Shown: piece by piece, positions 19,756 to 62,484 of the stretch
Layout of the letters: every line of letters starts with the position of its first letter
Position numbering within the stretch: position 1 is the first letter of the stretch
The notes under the pieces: generated by a model
Told to the model about the DNA's origin: nothing
Databases searched by the model: none
The model's input: the letters and a program-made list of their open reading frames with translations, nothing else
Assembly: GCA_964421985.1 (NCBI GenBank)
Contig: CAYQZE010000018.1
Span: 583 to 64,582, forward strand
Origin: an uncultured Dehalococcoidia bacterium
Lineage (GTDB): Bacteria; Chloroflexota; Dehalococcoidia; DSTF01; JACRBR01
DNA length: 64,000 nucleotides
Direction: 5' to 3'
Made by a program: the position numbers and the translations under genes

Positions 19756-19771
19756 AAACATGAACGAGCGT

Positions 19772-19793
19772 GTAGCGCGGACTTCAGTCCGCG
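19772..19793 (+). repeat. REP element type 2 (GTAG + cgcggac/gtccgcg hairpin)
   Basis: GTAGCGCGGACTTCAGTCCGCG. An inverted degenerate copy of the palindrome core lies at 19815-19830. Confidence 0.55.
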
Positions 19794-19892
19794 TGAGGTG
19801 GGAAGCGGCGAACGCGCAGACTGAAGTCCACGCCACAGAATCGCCGAACAGACGACTGACGGCCGACGACCAATTCGAGAGAGGATCAACCG

Positions 19893-53735: not shown

Positions 53736-56465
53736 TCAGGACACCACGCGGATACGCGAGCCGTTCCCGCACGTCTCGACGAGGATCTGGTCGGGAAAAT
53801 TGTCGCGATTGGTGAACGCGTCGAGGTGCGATACGACGATCACCTTATCCATGTGCGTCGCCAGTTGCCGCAGCTCATCCACCATCTGCTGCTGGCCGGC
53901 GGCGTCGAGGCTGCCGAAGCCCTCGTCGATGACGATCGAGCGCATGCCGCCGGCCCCCGCATACTGCCCGATGCCCGACGCGATGGCGACCGCGCAGCGG
54001 AACTTCTGTGAGCCGGACAGCACCTTCGGGCTACGTGGCTCTCGCATGCACGTGGAGTCGATCGCCAGCAGCTCCAGCAGGTCGCCCTTGGGGCGCTCGA
54101 TGGCGAGCTGCAGCGTGCCGCCGGTGAGCCGCTGCAGGAACGCGTTCGCGTTGCTGGTGATCGCGTTCAGCGCGTCCGTGATCAGCACGCCCTGCAGCCC
54201 TTTCTTGCCGAGCAGATCGGCGAGCTTCTTCAGTCGCTTGATCCGTACCTCGCCGTGCGCGCGTTCTGCCTGCTTGCGCGCCAGCTCGTCGATGCGCGCT
54301 TCGAGGAGCGTGAGCCGCTGTTGCGCGGCCTGCGCCGTGCGCCGCGCTGCATCCGCTTGGGCTTCCGCGCCGGCGGCGATGACGCGCGCGGTCGCCTCGT
54401 CGATGCGGTGGTCCGCCGGGATCGACGCGACCTCGCTCTGCTTCGCCGCGCGCTCGCCGCTGCAGGCCGCGTGGTCGCGCAGCGCCTCATCGAGGGAGGA
54501 CTTGCGTTGCGGCGCACCAGCGAGATCCTGGCGGTGCGAGCGCAGCGTGGCAAGCGTGCCAGCCGCGTCGTCCAATGCAGGCTCCGCCAGCGCGCCAAGA
54601 CCGCGGGCGACCTCCTCGGCGGCCTGATGATGCCCGACAGCTTCCTGCGTCCGATGCGCCGCCGTCGCCTCGAGTGCCGCTCGCTGGTCGCGGGCCGTCG
54701 CGAGCGCATCGCGCGCTGCCGCTTCTGCCGCGCGCGACGCATCCAGCTGACGTCGCGCGCCCGCAAGCGCGACCTGCAACGACTCGAGTTGACGCACCGT
54801 GCGCGCGTGCGCCTCCTGCGCCGGTCCGACGTCCTTGTTGCGCCCGTTGAGCTTCGCCTCATGCGCGGCGAGCACCGTCGTCGCGCGCTCGTGCTCCAGC
54901 ACGGCGGCTGCGCGCTGTCCATCAAGACGGTGCAGCTGCTGCTCGACCGTCTTCATGCCCTCGGCGATTTCGTCGTGCCGCTGCCGGGCGGCGGCTCGGG
55001 CAGCGGCCGCCCGTTTCTCCGCGGCACGTGCGCCCGTCGCCTGCTGCTGCGCGGCCGCGAGCTGCGCCGTCAGCTCGCCGATCTGTTCCTTCGCCGCCTT
55101 CTTGTCGATCGGATGCCCGCAGCGTGTACAGGTCGATTCCTTTGCGGCGGCTTTGCGGTCGGCCAGCTGTTGCCTGACGGCGCCCGCGGCTGCATCGGCC
55201 TCGGCAGCTGCCGTGCGCGCCGCGTCGAGCGTGGCATCCGCCTGTTCGGCGGCCATCCGCGCGGCGGCGGCATCACGCGCGACGGACTCCCGGCCGGCCG
55301 ACAGCTCGCGGAGCTGTGCGTTCGCTTGCGTCCGCTGCTCGGCGATGGCCGCGACGCGTGCCTGGCCCTCGAGCACCGCACCTGCGATCTGCGCGAAGTC
55401 ACGCGCGTCGCGTTCCGCCGCCGCCGTCGCATCGTGCTCGCGCTCGTCTTTACTCACCTTCTCCGTCAGCGCTCGGACCTGCGCTGCCGCCGCGACGTGC
55501 TCCGCCGTCAGCGCATCGATGTCCAGCGCAGCGGCCCGCTTGCGCGAGTCGTTCGCCGCGCCCTCGGCCTGTTGCGCGTCGGTGAGCAGCGACGCGATCC
55601 GCTGCACGGAGTCGATCGCGCCCTCCAGCGTCTCGAACAGCGCCGCATCCTTCTCGATCTGGTCGCGCTCAGCGATCAGGATCTCGGCTCCGGCAAGCCG
55701 CGCATCGAGCGCCGCGATCTCGCCGGCCAGCCGCGCATGGCGCTGCGCGTCCGCGAGGAGCGTGCGCGCCGCCTGTGCGGCGGCGGCGGCCTGCTGCTCG
55801 CGTTCCAGCGTCGCCGTCAGTTCCTCCCGCAGGCGTATGACGGCGTCGGCATCGACGCCCTCGAATCCTTTGAGGTCTTCCGTGAGCTTGTCGAGAATGA
55901 CCTTCTCCACTTTGTGCGCGTCGCGCGCGCGCTTCTCCAGCGCCTCGTACTCGTGCAGCCCGATCAGGCCGCTGACGATGTCGAATCGCGGCTTCGGGTC
56001 GGCGTCGAGGAAGCGCGTGGCGTCGCCCTGCTGCAACAGAAACGAGGACGTGAACGCCTCGGGCGTCAGTCGCACGATGTGGTCGATGGCGCGTTTCAGC
56101 GCGTCTTCCTTCTGGGTGCCGGGCACCTGCGTCCAGTCGCTCGCGCCGGCGTCCCAGATCCAGAGGCTCTGATCGCGCTCCGCCTCCTTGCGGCCGCGGC
56201 TTCTGCGCACGAGGTAGCGCTGCCCGTCCGTCTCAAACTCGAAGTCGACTGACAGCCGGTCCATGTCTTGCGAGATGAGCTGCGCCGCGTGCACCTTGCC
56301 GAGGCGATGCAGCCCGTAGAGCGCAAACGTGATGGCATCGAAGATGGACGACTTGCCGGCGCCGTTCGCACCGCAGATCGCGATCAGCGGGCCGCCGCCG
56401 AAGTCGGCGACCTGCTCGTCGCGATAGCGCATCCAGCCGCTCATGCGGACGCTCAGCGGGATCAT
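53736..56465 (-). CDS. sbcC: SbcC/Rad50-family SMC-like ATPase with a CxxC zinc hook
   Basis: 909 aa from ATG 56463-56465. Walker A GANGAGKSS. Central coiled coil with CTRCGHP hook. C-terminal signature LSGSQKFRCAVAIA and Walker B VIDEGFGSLD. Confidence 0.85.
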   Translation of the reverse strand: MIPLSVRMSGWMRYRDEQVADFGGGPLIAICGANGAGKSSIFDAITFALYGLHRLGKVHAAQLISQDMDRLSVDFEFETDGQRYLVRRSRGRKEAERDQSLWIWDAGASDWTQVPGTQKEDALKRAIDHIVRLTPEAFTSSFLLQQGDATRFLDADPKPRFDIVSGLIGLHEYEALEKRARDAHKVEKVILDKLTEDLKGFEGVDADAVIRLREELTATLEREQQAAAAAQAARTLLADAQRHARLAGEIAALDARLAGAEILIAERDQIEKDAALFETLEGAIDSVQRIASLLTDAQQAEGAANDSRKRAAALDIDALTAEHVAAAAQVRALTEKVSKDEREHDATAAAERDARDFAQIAGAVLEGQARVAAIAEQRTQANAQLRELSAGRESVARDAAAARMAAEQADATLDAARTAAAEADAAAGAVRQQLADRKAAAKESTCTRCGHPIDKKAAKEQIGELTAQLAAAQQQATGARAAEKRAAAARAAARQRHDEIAEGMKTVEQQLHRLDGQRAAAVLEHERATTVLAAHEAKLNGRNKDVGPAQEAHARTVRQLESLQVALAGARRQLDASRAAEAAARDALATARDQRAALEATAAHRTQEAVGHHQAAEEVARGLGALAEPALDDAAGTLATLRSHRQDLAGAPQRKSSLDEALRDHAACSGERAAKQSEVASIPADHRIDEATARVIAAGAEAQADAARRTAQAAQQRLTLLEARIDELARKQAERAHGEVRIKRLKKLADLLGKKGLQGVLITDALNAITSNANAFLQRLTGGTLQLAIERPKGDLLELLAIDSTCMREPRSPKVLSGSQKFRCAVAIASGIGQYAGAGGMRSIVIDEGFGSLDAAGQQQMVDELRQLATHMDKVIVVSHLDAFTNRDNFPDQILVETCGNGSRIRVVS

Positions 56466-57646
56466 CCGTCGGCTCCTGCCGGCAGAGCGCGCAGTTCTGT
56501 CACCAACTCCAGCAGCGCGGCGCGCTCGTCTTCGGGCATCTGCTGCTCGCCGAGGTAGCGGCGTACCGTTTCCTCGACGTCCGCCGGATTCAAGCCGGCG
56601 ACCGTCGGGACGAGCGGCGCCGCGTCCGTCCACGCGCAGTCGACGTTGCCGTACAGCCGCGGGAAGAGTTGGCGCGCCCGGTCCAGCAGCGGCGCCAGAT
56701 ACGTCCCCTGAGGCACCTGCAGCGTCAGCTTCACGAGCGTCACGTCCGGCCGTGCGATTGTCGCCGCACCGGCCACCAGAGTCGTTTCGTCCGACGCGGT
56801 GATGGCAGCGATCGGAGTCGGGTCGAGCGGCAGCGACGTGACCTCGCGCACGCCGGCCGGGCCGATGTCGGCGAGCAGGACGCGCGGCTGGTAGTCACGC
56901 TCGCCCACATCCATCCGGTCGAGCGCGCCGACGTAGTAGAAGTGCCCGCCACCGAGTTGCTCGGCCTTGTGGATGTGACCGACGACGGTCAGCTCGAACT
57001 CCGGGAAGGCGCCACGCGGCACGACCACATCGTCGCGCGGCGTGATGCGATGCGCCTTCACCGTGGTGCCGGTGACGGTGACATGCGTGAGCAGTACCGT
57101 CGGCAGCCGCTGTTCGGCCGACGCTTTCCGCAGCTCCTCCATCTTCTCGACGAAGAGCTTGGTGAGCTGTTCGTTGCGCTGCGCGACACCGCCCGCATCA
57201 TCGTGCTGGAGTTCGTAGCGCGCGAGCGTGGGGAACGGCAGCATCGCGAAGTTCAGGCGCTCGCCGCGCGCTTCGACGGTGAGCAACTCGGGACGCGTGC
57301 GCAAGGCGATGCGTTCCCCATCGGCGGGCGCGTGCGCACCCAGCCAGGTGCTGGCCATGTCCATGAAGTAGTCGCGATCATGGTTCCCCGCGACAGCGAC
57401 GATGCGCAGCCCGCGCGTCAATGGCCCGGCCAGCGCCTCCATCATCGCCCCGACGGCAGCCCGGGCCGCGCCCCGCTCCTGCGCCTCGAACACGTCGCCC
57501 GCGATCGCCAGCACGTCGACCGCGTGCTCGTCGATGTACGCCGCGATCATCCGGAGCTGCCGCGCCTGATCTGCCAACCGAGGCGCCGGATTCGCGCCGG
57601 CCAGCGAGTATCCCAGGTGCCAGTCGGCGGAGAACAGCACCTTCAT
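56462..57646 (-). CDS. sbcD: SbcD/Mre11-family nuclease
   Basis: MKVLFSADWHLG...AGDVFE...GNHD...calcineurin-like phosphoesterase motifs. Start overlaps the sbcC ATG (ATGA). Stop of the upstream RAYT gene overlaps its ATG. Confidence 0.85.
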   Translation of the reverse strand: MKVLFSADWHLGYSLAGANPAPRLADQARQLRMIAAYIDEHAVDVLAIAGDVFEAQERGAARAAVGAMMEALAGPLTRGLRIVAVAGNHDRDYFMDMASTWLGAHAPADGERIALRTRPELLTVEARGERLNFAMLPFPTLARYELQHDDAGGVAQRNEQLTKLFVEKMEELRKASAEQRLPTVLLTHVTVTGTTVKAHRITPRDDVVVPRGAFPEFELTVVGHIHKAEQLGGGHFYYVGALDRMDVGERDYQPRVLLADIGPAGVREVTSLPLDPTPIAAITASDETTLVAGAATIARPDVTLVKLTLQVPQGTYLAPLLDRARQLFPRLYGNVDCAWTDAAPLVPTVAGLNPADVEETVRRYLGEQQMPEDERAALLELVTELRALPAGADG

Positions 57647-58242
57647 CTGGCGACCTCTGCGCGACCAACGACCGGCGGCGCGGCCTTGCTTAGCCAATAG
57701 TCGAATTCGCGTTCTACGGCGTCGGGTCTCCCGGCCGGATTCTCGCGGTCGAAGGACCACCGCGTGGGGTTGTCGACGATGTACTGGCGGATGCGTCGAA
57801 GCGCGCCTTCGTCCCGAATGATGTGCTCGTGGTAGTTGCGTTGCCACACGATGAACTCACTGCCGGCCAAACGCCGGAGATCCCGAGTCACACGCGCCTT
57901 AAATGAGCGAACGATCGCGCCCAGCGCGCCCGCTTCGACACGAGGCCGCGCATGCTGTAGGGGCGCAGCCTGCTGCGCCCGGTCGGCGGTTGCATCGCGA
58001 TCCCCAAGAAACAAGATGCCATGCACGTGGTTCGGCATGACGACGAACTCGTCGATCTCGATGTACGGATGATGGTTTGGAATGTCCGTCCAAGCGACTT
58101 CTATGATCTGACGCATTCGCAGGTCCGCGAACAATGCTTGGCGACCGCTGGTACAGATCGTGATGAAATAGCCGCCGGGCGTACGGTAGTCGTAGTCCCG
58201 GAGGCGCACGGATCGCCGGTTTGGCGGCACCGAGCCGGTCAT
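57643..58242 (-). mobile_element. REP-associated tyrosine transposase (RAYT; IS200/IS605-like Y1 HuH transposase family, TnpA_REP)
   Basis: 199 aa. RRSVRLRDYDYRTPGGYFITICT resembles the RAYT N-terminus. HuH motif PNHVHGILFL. Catalytic Tyr region RNYHEHIIRDE. A REP copy lies inside the CDS (57957-57980) and another 17 nt upstream (58259-58282). Confidence 0.8.
57957..57980 (+). repeat. REP element type 1 inside the RAYT coding sequence
   Basis: GTAGGGGCGCAGCCTGCTGCGCCC. Encodes ...QQAAPLQ... within a linker of the RAYT protein. Confidence 0.65.
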
Positions 58243-58258
58243 CGCGATCGCCCGTTCC

Positions 58259-58282
58259 GGGCGCAGCCCGCTGCGCCCCTAC
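58259..58282 (-). repeat. REP element type 1 (inverted orientation) just upstream of the RAYT start
   Basis: Reverse complement reads GTAGGGGCGCAGCGGGCTGCGCCC. Confidence 0.65.
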
Positions 58283-58316
58283 AGTGCCTCCGCGATCGTT
58301 CAGGAAGCTGCCCCAT

Positions 58317-60266
58317 CTACATCTCCAGAGACTGCGCCTTGCGCTTGCCGTCCGGCGACGGCGTCACCTTCCCGGCGTCGATGCCGGGCGCGCGCTCGGC
58401 GCCGGCGAGGCAGTCCGGCGGCGTGTCGGTTGCCTCTTCTGGGCGCATCGCCCAGGGCGGGCGCGGCACCTTCACGTGCAGTGCCTCGCGAAAGTTCGGT
58501 GCGACGATGACTTTCTCCTCCGGGCTCAGCCGCAGCGCGAGCTTGCGGTCGCCCTCGGAGAAGCCGCGCCAGATCGCATCCGCCAGCTCCTGCCCGCCGG
58601 AGCGGCCCAGCACGCGCGTCTGGCTGTTCTCGATCACGACGTCCGACACGCGCGACCCCTGCTGCTGCGCGCCGAAGAGGATGATGCCGCGTGAGCGCAT
58701 CTGGCTGGCGACGTACTCGAACAGCCTGGTGATCGCGTCCGATGCGCCGCGCGGCGCGTAGCGGTTGAGTTCGTCGATGACGACGAGAAAGGTCTCGTAA
58801 CGCGCTGCGTGCGGGCCGCTCCGCCACTGCACGAGCTGGTTGAGCGCCGCCGCGATGACGAAGCGCTGCAGGTGCGCGTCGTGGATCGACTGGATGTCGA
58901 TGACGCTGACATCCTCCTGCATCGTCACCAGCGAGAGCGGCGCGCCCTCGATGTCGTCGCGGCGCAGCAGCCCCGACGTCGGTCCGAGCACGCGCGCGAG
59001 CCTGCGCCACAGCGCCTGGATGGTGGAGTTGCTCATGCTGCGCAGGCTGTCGTCGTCGACATCCTTCGACTCAGGTTGCGCCTTCATTTCGATGTAGTTC
59101 AGCAGGTCCTGGAATGTCAGCACCGGGTTGCCGCCGGCGAGGTCGTTCTTGCTGTTGAACGCCCGCTCCAGCGAGTCGGTCAGCTGGCGGCGGGCGGCGA
59201 CGCGCGCGTCGGGTGCGCCGCCCAGCCGCTCCTCCAGGCTCTGCGCCTTCGTGCGGCCGACGGACAGCCGGTGGCTGAGCCAGTTGATCAGCGTGACGAT
59301 GTTATCGTTCGCGCGCGTCTCCTCCGAGAACAGCAGATCGAAGAGGCCGAAATCGATGATGTCCTTCAGTGACCACGAGTACGGCTTCACATCGCCCGGG
59401 CGCTCCGTCGTGATCGGCAGTGGCGCGCCGCTTCGTTGCGATGTCTCGGGCGCGTAGTAGGCGATGCTGCGGAAGATGTCGGGCGACGCCACGCCCATCT
59501 CGCGCCACGTCCGCAGGTCAGCCTCCGTGAACTTGTTGGACCAGCGGTCGAGCCAGAAGAGGTCGAACCCCTTGACGTTGAAGATGATCGCCTTGATCCG
59601 CGGACGCTGGCCGCTTCCCACCATGCCGGCGCCGCGCGTCTTCACGGCGTTGATCGTCTGCGACGCGGCGAGCGTGAGGAACGACGACTTCGTGCCGGAA
59701 CCGGCCGCGCCGTTGACGTTCAGGTGCCCCGACTGCGCGCCCAGCAGGAAATCCTGATCGAGGAATGCTCGGCCCGCGGTGGAGTCCCCGCCGTTGCGGA
59801 TCAGACCGACGCAGACGCCGCGCTCGTCGGCGTACTGGTCGATCTCGTACGCGCGCTCGGCGTCGCGCTCCCCGCACGAAAACACGGTGCTGCCTTCGAT
59901 GGGCGGCGCCAGTTTCGGTGGGAAGGCGTTGACCACGCGCGCCTTTGCGTACGTCACGCCGTCGCGGTCCAGCATCAGGTCATCGGCGATCGGATCGCCG
60001 TCGTGCGCCGCCAGCTCCATGTGCATGGAGCTGATGGTCGAGCGGCGGTAGACCTGCTCGACGACGCCGAACAGCTCGACCTCCGCGCCGCCCATGACCG
60101 TCGGCACGCGCACGATCTGCGTCTGCTCGACGAGCTGCCCGGGCGCCAGCCAGAAGTAGAACTCATCGCCGTTCGCCTCCTGCCCCAGCGGGCAGCCGAT
60201 ACGCCCGACCGCCTGGGGTTCGGGTGCGTCTGGCGTGTGGCCGTTGGCGGAGGAATCCATCGTCAT
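58317..60266 (-). CDS. HerA-like FtsK/HerA-superfamily ATPase (bipolar DNA helicase homologue)
   Basis: 649 aa. P-loop NGAAGSGTKSS. Walker B LVVIDELNRYAP. C-terminal GAQQQGSRVSDVV sensor-like region typical of HerA/FtsK/VirB4 ATPases. N-terminal ~140 aa is consistent with a HAS-barrel. Gene order nurA...herA. Confidence 0.65.
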   Translation of the reverse strand: MTMDSSANGHTPDAPEPQAVGRIGCPLGQEANGDEFYFWLAPGQLVEQTQIVRVPTVMGGAEVELFGVVEQVYRRSTISSMHMELAAHDGDPIADDLMLDRDGVTYAKARVVNAFPPKLAPPIEGSTVFSCGERDAERAYEIDQYADERGVCVGLIRNGGDSTAGRAFLDQDFLLGAQSGHLNVNGAAGSGTKSSFLTLAASQTINAVKTRGAGMVGSGQRPRIKAIIFNVKGFDLFWLDRWSNKFTEADLRTWREMGVASPDIFRSIAYYAPETSQRSGAPLPITTERPGDVKPYSWSLKDIIDFGLFDLLFSEETRANDNIVTLINWLSHRLSVGRTKAQSLEERLGGAPDARVAARRQLTDSLERAFNSKNDLAGGNPVLTFQDLLNYIEMKAQPESKDVDDDSLRSMSNSTIQALWRRLARVLGPTSGLLRRDDIEGAPLSLVTMQEDVSVIDIQSIHDAHLQRFVIAAALNQLVQWRSGPHAARYETFLVVIDELNRYAPRGASDAITRLFEYVASQMRSRGIILFGAQQQGSRVSDVVIENSQTRVLGRSGGQELADAIWRGFSEGDRKLALRLSPEEKVIVAPNFREALHVKVPRPPWAMRPEEATDTPPDCLAGAERAPGIDAGKVTPSPDGKRKAQSLEM

Positions 60267-60688
60267 CGGCGCTCCAGTACCTCACCCCCCGACCCCCTCT
60301 CCACGACGTGGAGAGGGGGGGCAGGAGCACCGAGCGTGCGCAGTATGTCACCGAGAACTTGCTTGATGTTCTCGAGGACGGTGTGGTTGGTTACGCGAAG
60401 AAATCGGATGCCGCGTTGCTTCAGGTATTCCTGACGCGCGAAGTCTTCGTGCACCCGTCGATCGTGCACGGGCCCGTCGACTTCGATGACAACGCCTAGT
60501 TCGACACAATAGAAGTCCACAATGAACCGGCCGATCGGATGCTGGCGACGGAACTTCCATCCGCCCAGCCGTTTGCCTCGCAAACGCTCCCACAACAGCG
60601 CCTCCGCCTGCGTCGGCTCATGCCGCATCGAGCGGGCGAGCTCGCGCTGAGCGGTCCAACTCCGGCCATGCGTTGTGTAGCGTGTCAC
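60263..60688 (-). CDS. DUF559 (Vsr/restriction-endonuclease-like fold) domain protein
   Basis: 141 aa. EALLWERLRGKRLGGWKFRRQHPIGRFIVDFYCVELGVVIEVDGPVH is the canonical DUF559 core. GTG start with AGGAG ribosome-binding site. Stop overlaps the herA ATG. Confidence 0.7.
   Translation of the reverse strand: MTRYTTHGRSWTAQRELARSMRHEPTQAEALLWERLRGKRLGGWKFRRQHPIGRFIVDFYCVELGVVIEVDGPVHDRRVHEDFARQEYLKQRGIRFLRVTNHTVLENIKQVLGDILRTLGAPAPPLHVVERGSGGEVLERR
60293..60319. repeat. 27-bp perfect palindrome CCCCCTCTCCACG-A-CGTGGAGAGGGGG (inside the 3' end of the DUF559 ORF, upstream of herA)
   Basis: Read directly from the sequence. Partner copy at 60710-60734. Confidence 0.85.
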
Positions 60689-60709
60689 AAGAACTCTCCT
60701 CGTGCGGCT

Positions 60710-60734
60710 CCCCTCTCCACGTCGTGGAGAGGGG
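60710..60734. repeat. 25-bp perfect palindrome CCCCTCTCCACG-T-CGTGGAGAGGGG (between the nurA stop and the DUF559 start)
   Basis: Read directly from the sequence. Together with 60293-60319 it brackets a ~440-bp DUF559 unit. Confidence 0.85.
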
Positions 60735-60788
60735 CTGGGGGTGAGGTGCCCCGGCCTGCACCGACGTGTCGCCTTCCCAACAATCCGC

Positions 60789-61880
60789 TCATCTGAACAT
60801 CCGGTGCAGCCGCGGGATCAGCGCGTCCAGGTCGGGCAGGATGGCGTGCAGGTGATCTTCGACCCGCACGATCGGCTCCACGCTGATGCCGGCGCGCGCA
60901 TACGCCAGGTCGCGGTGGCGCAGGCGATACAGGTACGCCGCGAGCCCCGACAGGTAATCCGGCATGTCGTGCGCGTGCGCGCTCTCGACGTACGCCAACG
61001 GCGCCGTCAGGCGGACGATGCCGTACGACGGCGAGGTGCCGGCTTCGCCTGACAGCCGCACGTAGGTGTTCACCAGGTCGACATGCTGCACGGTCCGCAG
61101 GACGAATGCCGGCGTGCGCTCGCCCGGCTTCAGCGCGTAGGTCAGCTCCTGCAGGCCCGCAGGGAGGTACGCCGTCATCTGGCGCTTCACCAGGCCGACG
61201 ATCGGCACGTTGTGCGTCGGCGCGGTCGCGAGGCGGCGTTCGAGCAGGCCGTCCATCAGCGTCGACTTCGCGAAGTCGGCGAGCATGACAGCGCGTTCGG
61301 CTTCCTCCATCGCTTCCATCGCCAGGCTGCGCGTGCCGCGGCGCATCGTATCGAAATCGCCGTGCACCGAGCCCAGCGGGCGTTCCAGCAGGTCGACGTC
61401 GATCGCCCGCAGTGCGTGGAACGCCTCGGCGATCGCGTCGCGCTCGATGCCATCGGAGTACACGCACAGCACCTTGCGCGTGAGCGCCCCGGCGCCGCGC
61501 TTCGTCGCACGCCCGTCGATCTCAAGCGAGGCGGCCGACACGGCGGCGGCGATGATCGGCCTGCGCCGGAAGTCGACGAGCAGCGATCCGACGGTCTTCG
61601 ACTTGATCGAGCCGTCCACGAAGCGCACGGGCGCGTCGTCCGGCGGCGTGCCCGGCGCGATCGGCGCCCAGGCGTGCTGCGGAAGCTCGTATTCGAGTTC
61701 GAGTCCGTCACGCGGCGTGTCGTCCTCGTCGTCCGCCTCGTGTCCGGGAAACGGCGGTACTGACGCATCGTTGAGCGCGCTTGGCGCATACGCCGAGAAG
61801 ATCGTGCGCGGGGGGGCCGATGCGGGCACGAAAGCTCCGGATGCGTTATGTCGCACGTTTGTTCTAGGTGCTTGCTGCAA
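60789..61880 (-). CDS. NurA-like nuclease (RNase-H-fold 5'-3' nuclease partner of HerA)
   Basis: 363 aa. After a low-complexity N-terminal extension, VRFVDGSIKS matches NurA motif I (catalytic Asp in xxDGS). Size and acidic-residue spacing are consistent with a NurA domain. Assignment rests mainly on this motif and on synteny with the HerA-like ATPase. Confidence 0.55.
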   Translation of the reverse strand: MQQAPRTNVRHNASGAFVPASAPPRTIFSAYAPSALNDASVPPFPGHEADDEDDTPRDGLELEYELPQHAWAPIAPGTPPDDAPVRFVDGSIKSKTVGSLLVDFRRRPIIAAAVSAASLEIDGRATKRGAGALTRKVLCVYSDGIERDAIAEAFHALRAIDVDLLERPLGSVHGDFDTMRRGTRSLAMEAMEEAERAVMLADFAKSTLMDGLLERRLATAPTHNVPIVGLVKRQMTAYLPAGLQELTYALKPGERTPAFVLRTVQHVDLVNTYVRLSGEAGTSPSYGIVRLTAPLAYVESAHAHDMPDYLSGLAAYLYRLRHRDLAYARAGISVEPIVRVEDHLHAILPDLDALIPRLHRMFR

Positions 61881-61962
61881 GGATACGACCGCAGCCTTGG
61901 CGATGTAAAGCCATCCGGCCTAGACTCGGGAGCGAACGATGTTTTGCAGATAACGGTGCGCT

Positions 61963-62484
61963 GTGATCACTGAAGTCGAAGTGCGAGAGGCCGGGACCAA
62001 GGGCAACGGCGTCTTCGCGCGAAGGAGCTTTGAGCACGGCGAGTTCATCTTCCGGCGGCGGCACGGGTGTGTCGTCGACGCCCGGGGATTGGAACAGCTC
62101 TCCGCGCAGGATCAGATGCACATCTGCGAGCTCGACTGGGATCGCTTCGCCGTGCTGGTGCCGCCCGGCTGCTACCTCAACCATTCGTGCGATCCGAACG
62201 CGATGCGCAGCGGCGTCAAGGTCTTCGCATGGAAGCGGATCCGCGCCGGAGACGAGATCACGATCGACTATCGGTTGAATGCGTTCGACGGAAGTACCTG
62301 GCCGTGCGACTGCGGCAGCGCCAACTGCTCCGGTGAGGTCGTCGGAAGTTACTTCGCGCTTCCCGCCGAGCGTCAGAGGACGTATCTCCGCTACGCGCCG
62401 CGATTCATCCAGCGCGAGTACCGGCGGCGACAGCATCGGAACGCGGAGACGGTTGCGGTTCAGAAGATGGCGAGGAGTTCGTAG
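61963..62484 (+). CDS. SET-domain protein (putative protein-lysine methyltransferase)
   Basis: 173 aa. GNGVFARRSFEHGEFI, core NHSCDPN, post-SET-like CDCGSANCSG. Confidence 0.75.
   Translation: MITEVEVREAGTKGNGVFARRSFEHGEFIFRRRHGCVVDARGLEQLSAQDQMHICELDWDRFAVLVPPGCYLNHSCDPNAMRSGVKVFAWKRIRAGDEITIDYRLNAFDGSTWPCDCGSANCSGEVVGSYFALPAERQRTYLRYAPRFIQREYRRRQHRNAETVAVQKMARSS

Follow-up and report, generated by a model that had tools for sequence, protein, structure and literature searches.

The stretch of DNA analyzed here (64,000 nt of contig CAYQZE010000018.1 from an uncultured Dehalococcoidia bacterium; below, "the window" is this whole stretch) carries a small DUF559 gene that lies between two near-identical palindromic repeats and has been inserted between a nurA-like gene and herA. 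Genes of this family are accompanied by repeats of the same kind in many bacterial phyla, which is our main finding. The DUF559 open reading frame (ORF) occupies 60263–60688 on the minus strand, begins with GTG, and encodes 141 amino acids that match Pfam PF04480 with E = 1.4e-33 (115.5 bits against a cut-off of 20.6). A GGAGA ribosome-binding site, read from the sequence, lies 6 nt upstream of the GTG at 60695–60699, and the TGA stop overlaps the ATG of herA in an ATGA at 60263–60266, where the herA start aligns with that of a related locus (L001). herA itself (58317–60266) matched HerA in PDB 7F6D (E = 6e-43) and in PADLOC (3e-6). The 363-aa gene on the other side (60789–61880) is called nurA-like from synteny, as the order nurA-like/herA/sbcD/sbcC is found in the related loci L001 and L210. 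All three genes are on the minus strand. The original prediction, made from the DNA letters, had named the neighbours nurA and herA; the latter was borne out, whereas the former is an assignment by position, and no match in Pfam, NCBIfam, PADLOC or PDB supported it.

Inspection of the window sequence confirmed the coordinates and sequences of the two palindromes that had been predicted around the DUF559 ORF, a perfect one of 27 nt at 60293–60319 and another of 25 nt at 60710–60734. The 25-nt hairpins of the two copies are identical when each is read in its own orientation. With up to three mismatches allowed, the pattern CCCCTCTCCACGNCGTGGAGAGGGG occurred at two sites in the window and at none in each of 100 dinucleotide-preserving shuffles; on these shuffles and on the binomial test on 81 DUF559 genes described below, we rejected a chance origin of the pair. 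The palindromes turned out, however, to be parts of longer units that belong to a known repeat family and mostly stand alone in other genomes. The full repeat is an inverted pair of polar units of ∼40 nt (60279–60320 and 60709–60748), each made up of the hairpin CCCCTCTCCAC-GTC-GTGGAGAGGGG, 2–3 nt, and then GGGGGTGAGGT. Both have a stem of 11–12 bp and a 3-nt loop, with a 5′ arm rich in pyrimidines and a 3′ arm rich in purines, and a tail that is a mirror repeat of the purine arm. In the unit upstream of the gene (60709–60748, plus strand), with which the cassette ends toward nurA, the hairpin at 60710–60734 is followed by the spacer CT and the tail GGGGGTGAGGTG. In the downstream unit (60279–60320, minus strand), the hairpin at 60294–60318 (60293–60319 in its 27-nt version) is followed by the spacer GTC and the tail GGGGGGTGAGGT. 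The G-rich tails of both are directed outward from the gene. Folded as single-stranded DNA, the upstream hairpin reached −16.4 kcal/mol (z = −2.9) and the downstream one −15.9 kcal/mol (z = −3.2); the tail was left unpaired by ViennaRNA, which covers Watson-Crick pairs only and not triplexes. An Rfam scan of 57000–62000 (E ≤ 1) returned no relevant family, and we found no evidence for a role as a transcription factor or recombinase site, the other option that the original prediction had raised.

The same three-part architecture is found in the TMECO unit of Escherichia coli, CCCTCTCCC-TGT-GGGAGAGGG-CC-GGGGTGAGGG (Holder et al. 2015, PMC4666352), a repeat earlier called BoxC and also PIT, for potential intrastrand triplex (PMC4666352). 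According to that study and work cited there, triplex-motif copies number in the thousands across 262 proteobacterial genomes, are very patchily distributed among strains, and can make a triplex in vitro as a single strand; the study states explicitly that no transposase, integrase or consensus flanking gene is linked to them (PMC4666352). To compare the window units with this family, we looked for a hairpin with a stem of 8–15 and a loop of 1–6, which both units contain, and applied a mirror rule to the third, G-rich block, which lies 2–3 nt past the purine arm (G*G:C, A*A:T, T*A:T), and mirror tails were found in both units (GTGGAGAGGGG-CT-GGGGGTGAGGTG and ...-GTC-GGGGGGTGAGGT). A generic detector that looks for a pyrimidine/purine hairpin with a mirror tail reported exactly two units in the window and also recovered E. 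coli TMECO#9. Near DUF559 genes, hairpins were detected without reference to a tail to avert circularity, and a hairpin's own 3′ flank mirrored its own purine arm better than the flanks of other loci did in 117 of 141 cases (p = 5e-11). Because a hairpin with a covarying mirror tail is the architecture of the BoxC/PIT/TMECO intrastrand-triplex family, we assign the window units to it by sequence, as members whose stems measure 11 nt. Their stem (CCCCTCTCCAC/GTGGAGAGGGG) and tail (GGGGGTGAGGT) do not fit the strict TMECO pattern, CCCTCNCCC-N3-6-GGGNGAGGG-N3-GGGNGAGGG, and they are thus a sister variant rather than TMECO proper. Earlier work on BoxC and PIT is reportedly that of Bachellier in the 1990s and of Hoyne and Maher in 2000 and 2002.

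To determine how often DUF559 genes and such units go together, we assembled a reciprocal set of 81 DUF559 genes, for which 80 metagenomic loci encoding relatives (41–54% identical) were selected by protein similarity alone using a core-only alignment with the palindrome-encoded tails trimmed. A strict detector found units no more than 150 nt downstream of the core in 49 of the 81, within 250 nt upstream in 50, on both sides in 41, and on at least one side in 58. With a relaxed detector that accepts stems of ≥5 bp, these counts became 56, 56, 50 and 62, respectively. The background in the same loci was 0.10 per kb for the strict and 0.117 per kb for the relaxed detector, at which ∼1.3 and ∼1.5 genes would have a downstream unit by chance; the strict downstream count has a binomial P of 2e-66. 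This is an enrichment of roughly 40-fold, with about 60–77% of the genes having a unit within ∼150 nt, mostly as inverted pairs. While the hairpins vary widely between loci, they agree between the two flanks of one gene. The downstream hairpin begins 20–23 nt past the domain core in the window and in loci L001, L002, L005, L024 and L072. In the 41 two-sided cases the tails point inward in 18, outward in 13, both in 3 and otherwise in 7.

The pairing is also present in metagenome-assembled genomes of Chloroflexota type, in Gemmatimonadota, and in one deltaproteobacterium. In Deinococcus psychrotolerans, a DUF559 gene between paaD and paaZ lies within a perfect 33-nt inverted pair that is itself part of a 51-nt inverted repeat. 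Here (NZ_CP034185.1, 298330–298850; L214) the inverted repeat reaches 18 nt past the tails (attcgctttgttcactca / tgagtgagcaaagcgaat), and since it exceeds the triplex-motif tails, the mobile unit may be longer than the span from hairpin to hairpin. Units lie near the DUF559 gene of Azospirillum and near that of Neisseria gonorrhoeae, which is orthologous to PDB 3HRL, and short-stem units flank it on both sides in the cyanobacterium Synechococcus PCC 7002. Taken together, these comparisons show that DUF559 and inverted units form a module conserved across phyla. The original prediction had proposed searching for the palindrome beside other DUF559 genes, and it does recur with them, at other sites and in other phyla. 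Searches of the literature for DUF559, ycjD, BoxC, intrastrand triplexes and the motif strings yielded no paper that joins the gene family to the repeats; each is known, and their association appears to be unreported in the literature searched.

Most units, in contrast, have no such gene beside them. Scanning one genome per species for CCCCTCTCCAC-NNN-GTGGAGAGGGG, we found this exact stem, for the most part standing alone, at ≥120 loci from some 10 phyla. Its hosts include Chloroflexota, Gemmatimonadota, Acidobacteriota, Bacteroidota, Myxococcota, Ignavibacteria, Zixibacteria, Armatimonadota, SAR324 and one bacterium of the candidate phyla radiation, among others. The stem is dispersed, intergenic and multi-copy, with two copies within the 64-kb window. 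Of 134 hairpin copies, 125 have N1-4 and then GGGGGTGAGG next to the hairpin, at one end or at both; the tail is on one side in 111, on both in 14 and on neither in 9. Some copies are arranged in tandem and repeat every 181 or 132 nt; there are also long cruciform units in Anaerolineae, while five pairs in E. coli are short inverted pairs with no gene. Among the 120 loci listed, a DUF559 core lies within 150 nt at three (L010, L024 and L072) and the other 117 have none. These three share the layout CCTCACCCCC-hairpin, DUF559, hairpin-GGGGGTGAGG, and one of them is an AT-rich deltaproteobacterial contig. Pfam analysis of 210 ORFs beside the 120 listed, mostly solo units returned housekeeping genes and no family more than twice, hence no competing enzyme, and no recurrent transposase, integrase or RAYT family was found among these neighbours.

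E. coli offers a second view of the relation. The DUF559 gene of K-12, ycjD, terminates within a degraded hairpin (…SPSP*), past which lie a partial duplicate of its own 3′ end, GGGTTAGGGG, and an intact TMECO#9 ∼170 nt downstream. Within this stretch (NC_000913.3, 1351204–1351410) the duplicate is ∼45 nt long and followed by GGGTTAGGGG, and it resembles what remains of a second cassette end. K-12 carries 23 repeat units in all. A genome has ycjD once or not at all; the gene occurs in 3378 of 5426 complete E. coli genomes and fills the sapF–fabI site of the lost eefRABCD operon (PMC12817139). We used a chimeric ycjD and TMECO query, with which one search scores both in each genome, on an evenly spaced sample of chromosomes. 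Repeat places had a median of 21 (range 15–31) in 37 ycjD-positive chromosomes and of 4 (range 2–26) in 22 ycjD-negative ones (Mann-Whitney p = 2e-9, uncorrected). Of 94,867 repeat places, only 73 were on plasmids. The counts in the Holder supplement split alike, at 1–2, 19–24 and 27–30 by strain group (PMC4666352). Phylogeny confounds the correlation, and we use it as supporting evidence only. We take the three groups to be B2 (1–2), phylogroup A (19–24) and B1 (27–30).

The window was also compared with related loci for filled and empty junctions. The block of unit, DUF559 and unit spans 60279–60768 on the minus strand, as judged by filled and empty junctions and by a dip in GC content to 0.59 over the cassette compared with 0.69; its minimum is 60279–60748, with up to ∼20 more nt on the nurA side that have no match in the empty junction of L001. 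In that locus, whose HerA and NurA-like proteins are 93% and 90% identical to those of the window, the nurA–herA junction is 31 nt long, empty and without a palindrome. The herA–sbcD junction of L210 is likewise empty and has no repeat unit. Since empty junctions lack any unit, the two units and their gene are either all present or all missing. This shows that a cassette of ∼470–490 bp entered the spacer between the nurA-like gene and herA in one piece and in the orientation of the operon, and it agrees with the predicted splitting of a nurA–herA pair. DUF559 lies between the nurA-like gene and herA in the window and in L210, between herA and sbcD in L001–L004 and L211, upstream of a cupin gene and herA in L005, and at an unrelated site in L207–L209. 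All cassettes of this DUF559 clade end in (GA)GCACCTCACCCC … GGGGTGAGGTGC(TC). In L002 (1–165), and also in L003 and L004, we observed that the left unit is truncated (…ttg|CTCTCCACGACGTGGAGAGGGG) and abuts the end of an ORF with the C-terminus ..ACMRKLIIILNAMMRDGLPW.., which suggests a transposase of the insertion sequence (IS) family IS110 and hence that the hairpins are possible IS110 targets.

The DUF559 copies and their host genes differ strongly in divergence. Among the sister genomes, HerA is 86–99% identical with a synonymous divergence (dS) of 0.37–0.8, whereas the synonymous sites of the DUF559 copies are saturated (pS 0.62–0.86), with dN/dS of ∼0.07–0.28, a ratio that indicates purifying selection. 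Between L001 and L211, whose HerA is 99% identical and whose cassettes occupy the same junction, the flanking DNA is ∼90% identical and the cassette 65–72%, while 47 of 49 nt of the repeat units are identical. One pair, L001 and L002, has a DUF559 dS of 0.62, which is the host rate. Because these two cassettes diverge at the host rate, local hypermutation was rejected as the source of the divergence. As DUF559 is far more diverged than the host genes and sits at different junctions, these comparisons show a cassette that is not co-inherited with the operon and whose turnover, horizontal or by replacement, is independent of the host genes; it has been repeatedly inserted or replaced, with the nuclease kept functional and the units near-invariant. 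The cassettes thus enter, and are exchanged within, tight conserved operons such as this double-strand-break repair operon without disrupting them. That homologues 62–77% identical are found in the same operon in ≥6 related genomes could instead mean that DUF559 is an ancestral, functional member of a NurA-HerA-SbcD-SbcC double-strand-break repair operon and that the palindromes are regulatory. This is highly improbable in view of the three different junctions (nurA–herA, herA–sbcD and upstream of the cupin gene), the unrelated site and the empty junctions, of saturated synonymous sites compared with a host dS of ∼0.5, and of modules in unrelated operons (paaD–paaZ in Deinococcus and sapF–fabI in E. 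coli). A DUF559 gene conserved here without palindromes, which the original prediction would have taken for an ancestral member, was not what we found, the gene outdiverging its hosts.

DUF559 (PF04480) is a very large family for which a structure has been solved (3HRL). The core nuclease domain of the window protein comprises residues ∼8–120 (roughly 60329–60667), and residues 121–141 are the translated downstream unit (...PPLHVVERGSGGEV...), so that the palindrome does encode the C-terminus and the stop does fall on the herA ATG, as predicted. In an AlphaFold (AF2) model, the core mostly has predicted local distance difference test (pLDDT) values of 83–91, while residues 121–141 are unstructured (pLDDT 36–59). 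Because the tail is predicted to be disordered, we regard it as read-through and not as a functional domain. The closest homologues (62–77% identical) all carry a translated-palindrome tail, one of them in another reading frame, which implies that conservation acts at the level of DNA. The profile of the protein matched the N. gonorrhoeae "endonuclease-like protein" of PDB 3HRL (E = 3.6e-33) and the catalytic domain of the homing endonuclease I-Bth0305I (E = 4.5e-5). Foldseek ranked 3HRL first (TM 0.89), followed by I-Bth0305I (3R3P, TM 0.77), the nuclease domains of AbaSI/PvuRts1I, and Vsr (1VSR). The columns of D58, E69, D71, G72 and H75 are invariant (D...E-x-D-G-x-x-H), with which the enzyme is plausibly active. 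Several mitoribosomal large-subunit proteins of Toxoplasma and Tetrahymena also matched the fold in Foldseek, suggesting that the domain was recruited there as a ribosomal protein module. The PADLOC defence models matched DUF559 only marginally, so that it does not count as a recognised defence gene. A Caulobacter DUF559 protein, VsrA, triggers the SOS response, as shown by genetics, and has been read as a mismatch-repair nuclease linked to a cytosine methyltransferase (PMC12907096). The SOS response means that at least one DUF559 member is able to damage DNA in vivo.

In the window (60263–60266), L001 (4564–4567), L002 (614–617) and L211 (2288–2291), the ORF continues past the 3′ hairpin to a stop within the ATGA of the host gene that follows, and an indel in the L211 read-through is 21 nt long and keeps the frame. 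This ending may reflect selection for translational coupling, which would spare the host start from being blocked by a stable hairpin. It also fits a role of the units in expression, in which the 5′ and 3′ hairpins would insulate or stabilise the DUF559 mRNA, translation would be coupled to the host gene, and solo units would be relics of dead cassettes. Both hairpins are indeed very stable, a scan of the cassette found neither promoter nor terminator, and GGGGGTGA in the tail may pair with the anti-Shine-Dalgarno sequence. However, such a role leaves unexplained why the mirror tail covaries with the purine arm, why units occur in either orientation, as single-tailed solos and in 181- or 132-nt tandem arrays, and why an identical 22-nt stem is shared across phyla. 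The cassettes of L210, L005 and Deinococcus are not coupled through ATGA. Furthermore, work cited in Holder et al. found that purine-motif triplexes are not formed in RNA and that PIT elements have no promoter or terminator activity (PMC4666352). Overall, we consider it improbable that expression accounts for the units.

The explanation we favour, with a probability of about 0.5, is that DUF559 is the nuclease partner of the repeats, acts on the unit, and leaves the copying of cassettes and units to host recombination. DUF559 would recognise or cut the palindromic unit as a duplex, a cruciform, or a hairpin/triplex, after which host recombination repair would copy the cassette or solo units to new intergenic sites. 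The near-identical units could serve as portable homology or recognition sites, and solo units could be non-autonomous progeny or targets of the enzyme. The whole would work like a system of repetitive extragenic palindromes (REPs) and their REP-associated tyrosine transposase (RAYT), or like a free-standing homing endonuclease, with a different fold and as a member of neither. From these comparisons we infer a "selfish or homing-type" nature of the cassette, as the original prediction had suggested. The wider claim that DUF559 proteins are the dedicated partner enzymes of BoxC/PIT/triplex-motif repeats throughout Bacteria is one we make tentatively and think somewhat short of probable.

The units may instead have spread or arisen without DUF559, for example by structure-driven replication slippage or repair or by another enzyme, as unstable hot spots that capture, retain or shuffle a gene for a Vsr-like repair nuclease. 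Solo units do far outnumber those linked to DUF559 (117 of the 120 loci listed), and 15–26 units are kept in some ycjD-negative E. coli. Holder et al. connect the units with local genomic instability (PMC4666352), and the interpretation of Caulobacter VsrA as a nuclease of mismatch repair that works with a cytosine methyltransferase would suit a captured repair gene (PMC12907096), although no cytosine methyltransferase adjoins the window gene. Hitch-hiking is difficult to reconcile with the fixed geometry, in which a sequence-matched inverted pair places its hairpin 20–23 nt after the core, with a ∼40-fold enrichment at one gene family when solo units stand beside a random assortment of housekeeping genes, or with a unit-gene-unit block that is present or absent together. 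We therefore judge it unlikely, while granting it a real chance. Carriage by plasmids or phages was rejected as the route of spreading: among 72,556 plasmid records, 39 carry this type of DUF559 gene, and among 50,697 phage records a single one does.

Several observations weigh against DUF559 as the partner nuclease, among them the retention of units in ycjD-negative strains and the confounding by phylogeny noted above. Neither a defined cleavage site nor a donor/recipient pair emerged from the junction comparisons. No target-site duplication was seen at six filled junctions, where the exact ends of the element are uncertain. On its own, a PD-(D/E)XK nuclease is not known to act as a transposase. 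The single tail on 111 of the 134 stem copies is not predicted by simple deletion from either cassette architecture, and tails-in and tails-out architectures coexist. By the relaxed detector, about one quarter of the 81 DUF559 genes have no unit. The near-absence of DUF559 from phages and its rarity on plasmids are unlike aggressive mobile elements, though like RAYTs. Lastly, Holder et al. did not find a stable triplex in duplex DNA or in vivo (PMC4666352).

If DUF559 is indeed the partner of these repeats, the pair would be a new kind of repeat-plus-enzyme system built on the PD-(D/E)XK fold. It could be a mobile cassette with a nuclease as its only enzyme, or else a REP/RAYT analogue that has become domesticated. 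This would account for where the repeat family comes from, for its patchiness and for the genome instability associated with it, and the triplex/hairpin unit would be the recognition structure. What this reading does not explain is why the DUF559 clade of the window is repeatedly met in the same repair operon. DUF559 is the first candidate partner enzyme for BoxC-type repeats, which have been known in E. coli since the 1990s, and the position-fixed pairing across phyla gives the repeats and the DUF559 family each a candidate partner. The question can be tested directly in E. coli K-12 (ycjD and 23 units) and in N. gonorrhoeae (NGO0050).

Among known systems, REP/RAYT is the closest in layout. 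In both, a chromosomal gene, single-copy in E. coli and rare on plasmids and phages, stands between short palindromic repeats in inverted orientation, of a dispersed type that is much commoner elsewhere in the genome and whose abundance tracks the presence of the gene. They differ in fold, PD-(D/E)XK for DUF559 and HUH-Y1 for RAYT, and in the repeat, as the window units have a mirror tail instead of a 5′ GTAG head. REPs are also lineage-specific, whereas the triplex-motif stem is common to several phyla. The window offers this contrast side by side, since an HUH-Y1 RAYT gene with GTAG-type repeats lies 2 kb from DUF559 in the same operon (57643–58242, minus strand). This second inserted gene, between herA and sbcD, was identified by NCBIfam NF047646, which it matched with 82 bits, the cut-off being 80. 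GC content dips to ∼0.55 over it, and its TGA overlaps the sbcD ATG in an ATGA, like that of DUF559 and herA. The REP hairpins are at 57955–57982 and 58257–58284. One of GTAG type, CTGTAGGGGCGCAGC-GGG-CTGCGCCC, lies just upstream of the gene, and its inverted counterpart falls within the ORF, in frame, and is translated as ..DRAQQAAPLQ... L005 has a 197-aa ORF at the position of the RAYT gene. Elsewhere in the window, at 19771–19837, another GTAG-headed REP-like doublet, TGTAGCGCGGACTTCAGTCCGCG and a degenerate inverted copy 21 nt away, appears by its sequence to be a second REP/REPIN type in the same genome. Two further observations concern neighbouring genes. The listed 461-aa sbcD/mre11 ORF (56462–57847, minus strand) is over-extended, its homologues having 394 aa and the start MKVLFSADWH, which corresponds to the ATG at 57646. 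Divergently beside the nurA-like gene, 61963–62484 (plus strand) encodes a bacterial SET-domain protein (Pfam SET, E = 7e-12).

Transposons with terminal inverted repeats (TIRs) and miniature inverted-repeat transposable elements (MITEs) share other features with the cassette. Its ends, (GA)GCACCTCACCCC...GGGGTGAGGTGC(TC), are terminal inverted repeats, which reach 51 nt in Deinococcus, and the short inverted pairs with no gene, such as the five E. coli pairs and the Anaerolineae cruciform units, resemble MITEs. In contrast to TIR, IS and MITE systems, the cassette holds no DDE, serine, tyrosine or HUH transposase and DUF559 is its sole ORF; unlike MITEs, most solo units are single one-tailed half-sites. 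At the six filled junctions, with uncertain element ends, no target-site duplication was seen. With Vsr the protein shares a superfamily and a related fold (1VSR among the Foldseek matches). The window gene, however, has no Pfam Vsr match (only DUF559 and MTES_1575), and it sits in a repeat-flanked cassette with nurA-like and herA neighbours rather than next to a cytosine methyltransferase.

EDxHD homing endonucleases resemble DUF559 through the related catalytic domain of I-Bth0305I (E = 4.5e-5; TM 0.77). Like free-standing members, DUF559 is a small promoter-less gene between conserved genes, and as in homing endonucleases, presence/absence polymorphism and allele replacement are seen at one junction in sister genomes. 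The DUF559 ORF differs in lying outside any intron or intein, in having the size of a catalytic domain with no separate DNA-binding domain, and in being placed between intact repeat units; no target site was found in an "empty" allele. The BoxC/PIT/TMECO family remains the closest relative of the units themselves, with the same C/T-rich arm, loop, G/A-rich arm, 2–3 nt spacer and G-rich mirror of the purine arm, and with copies that are likewise intergenic, dispersed, at times in inverted pairs, patchy among strains and almost absent from plasmids. The window variant differs in its 11-nt stems (CCCCTCTCCAC/GTGGAGAGGGG), compared with the 9-nt CCCTCNCCC of the TMECO regular expression, and in its hosts, which are Chloroflexota, Gemmatimonadota, Acidobacteriota and others and not Proteobacteria. 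Whereas no associated gene was found for the published family, the window units bracket a nuclease gene.

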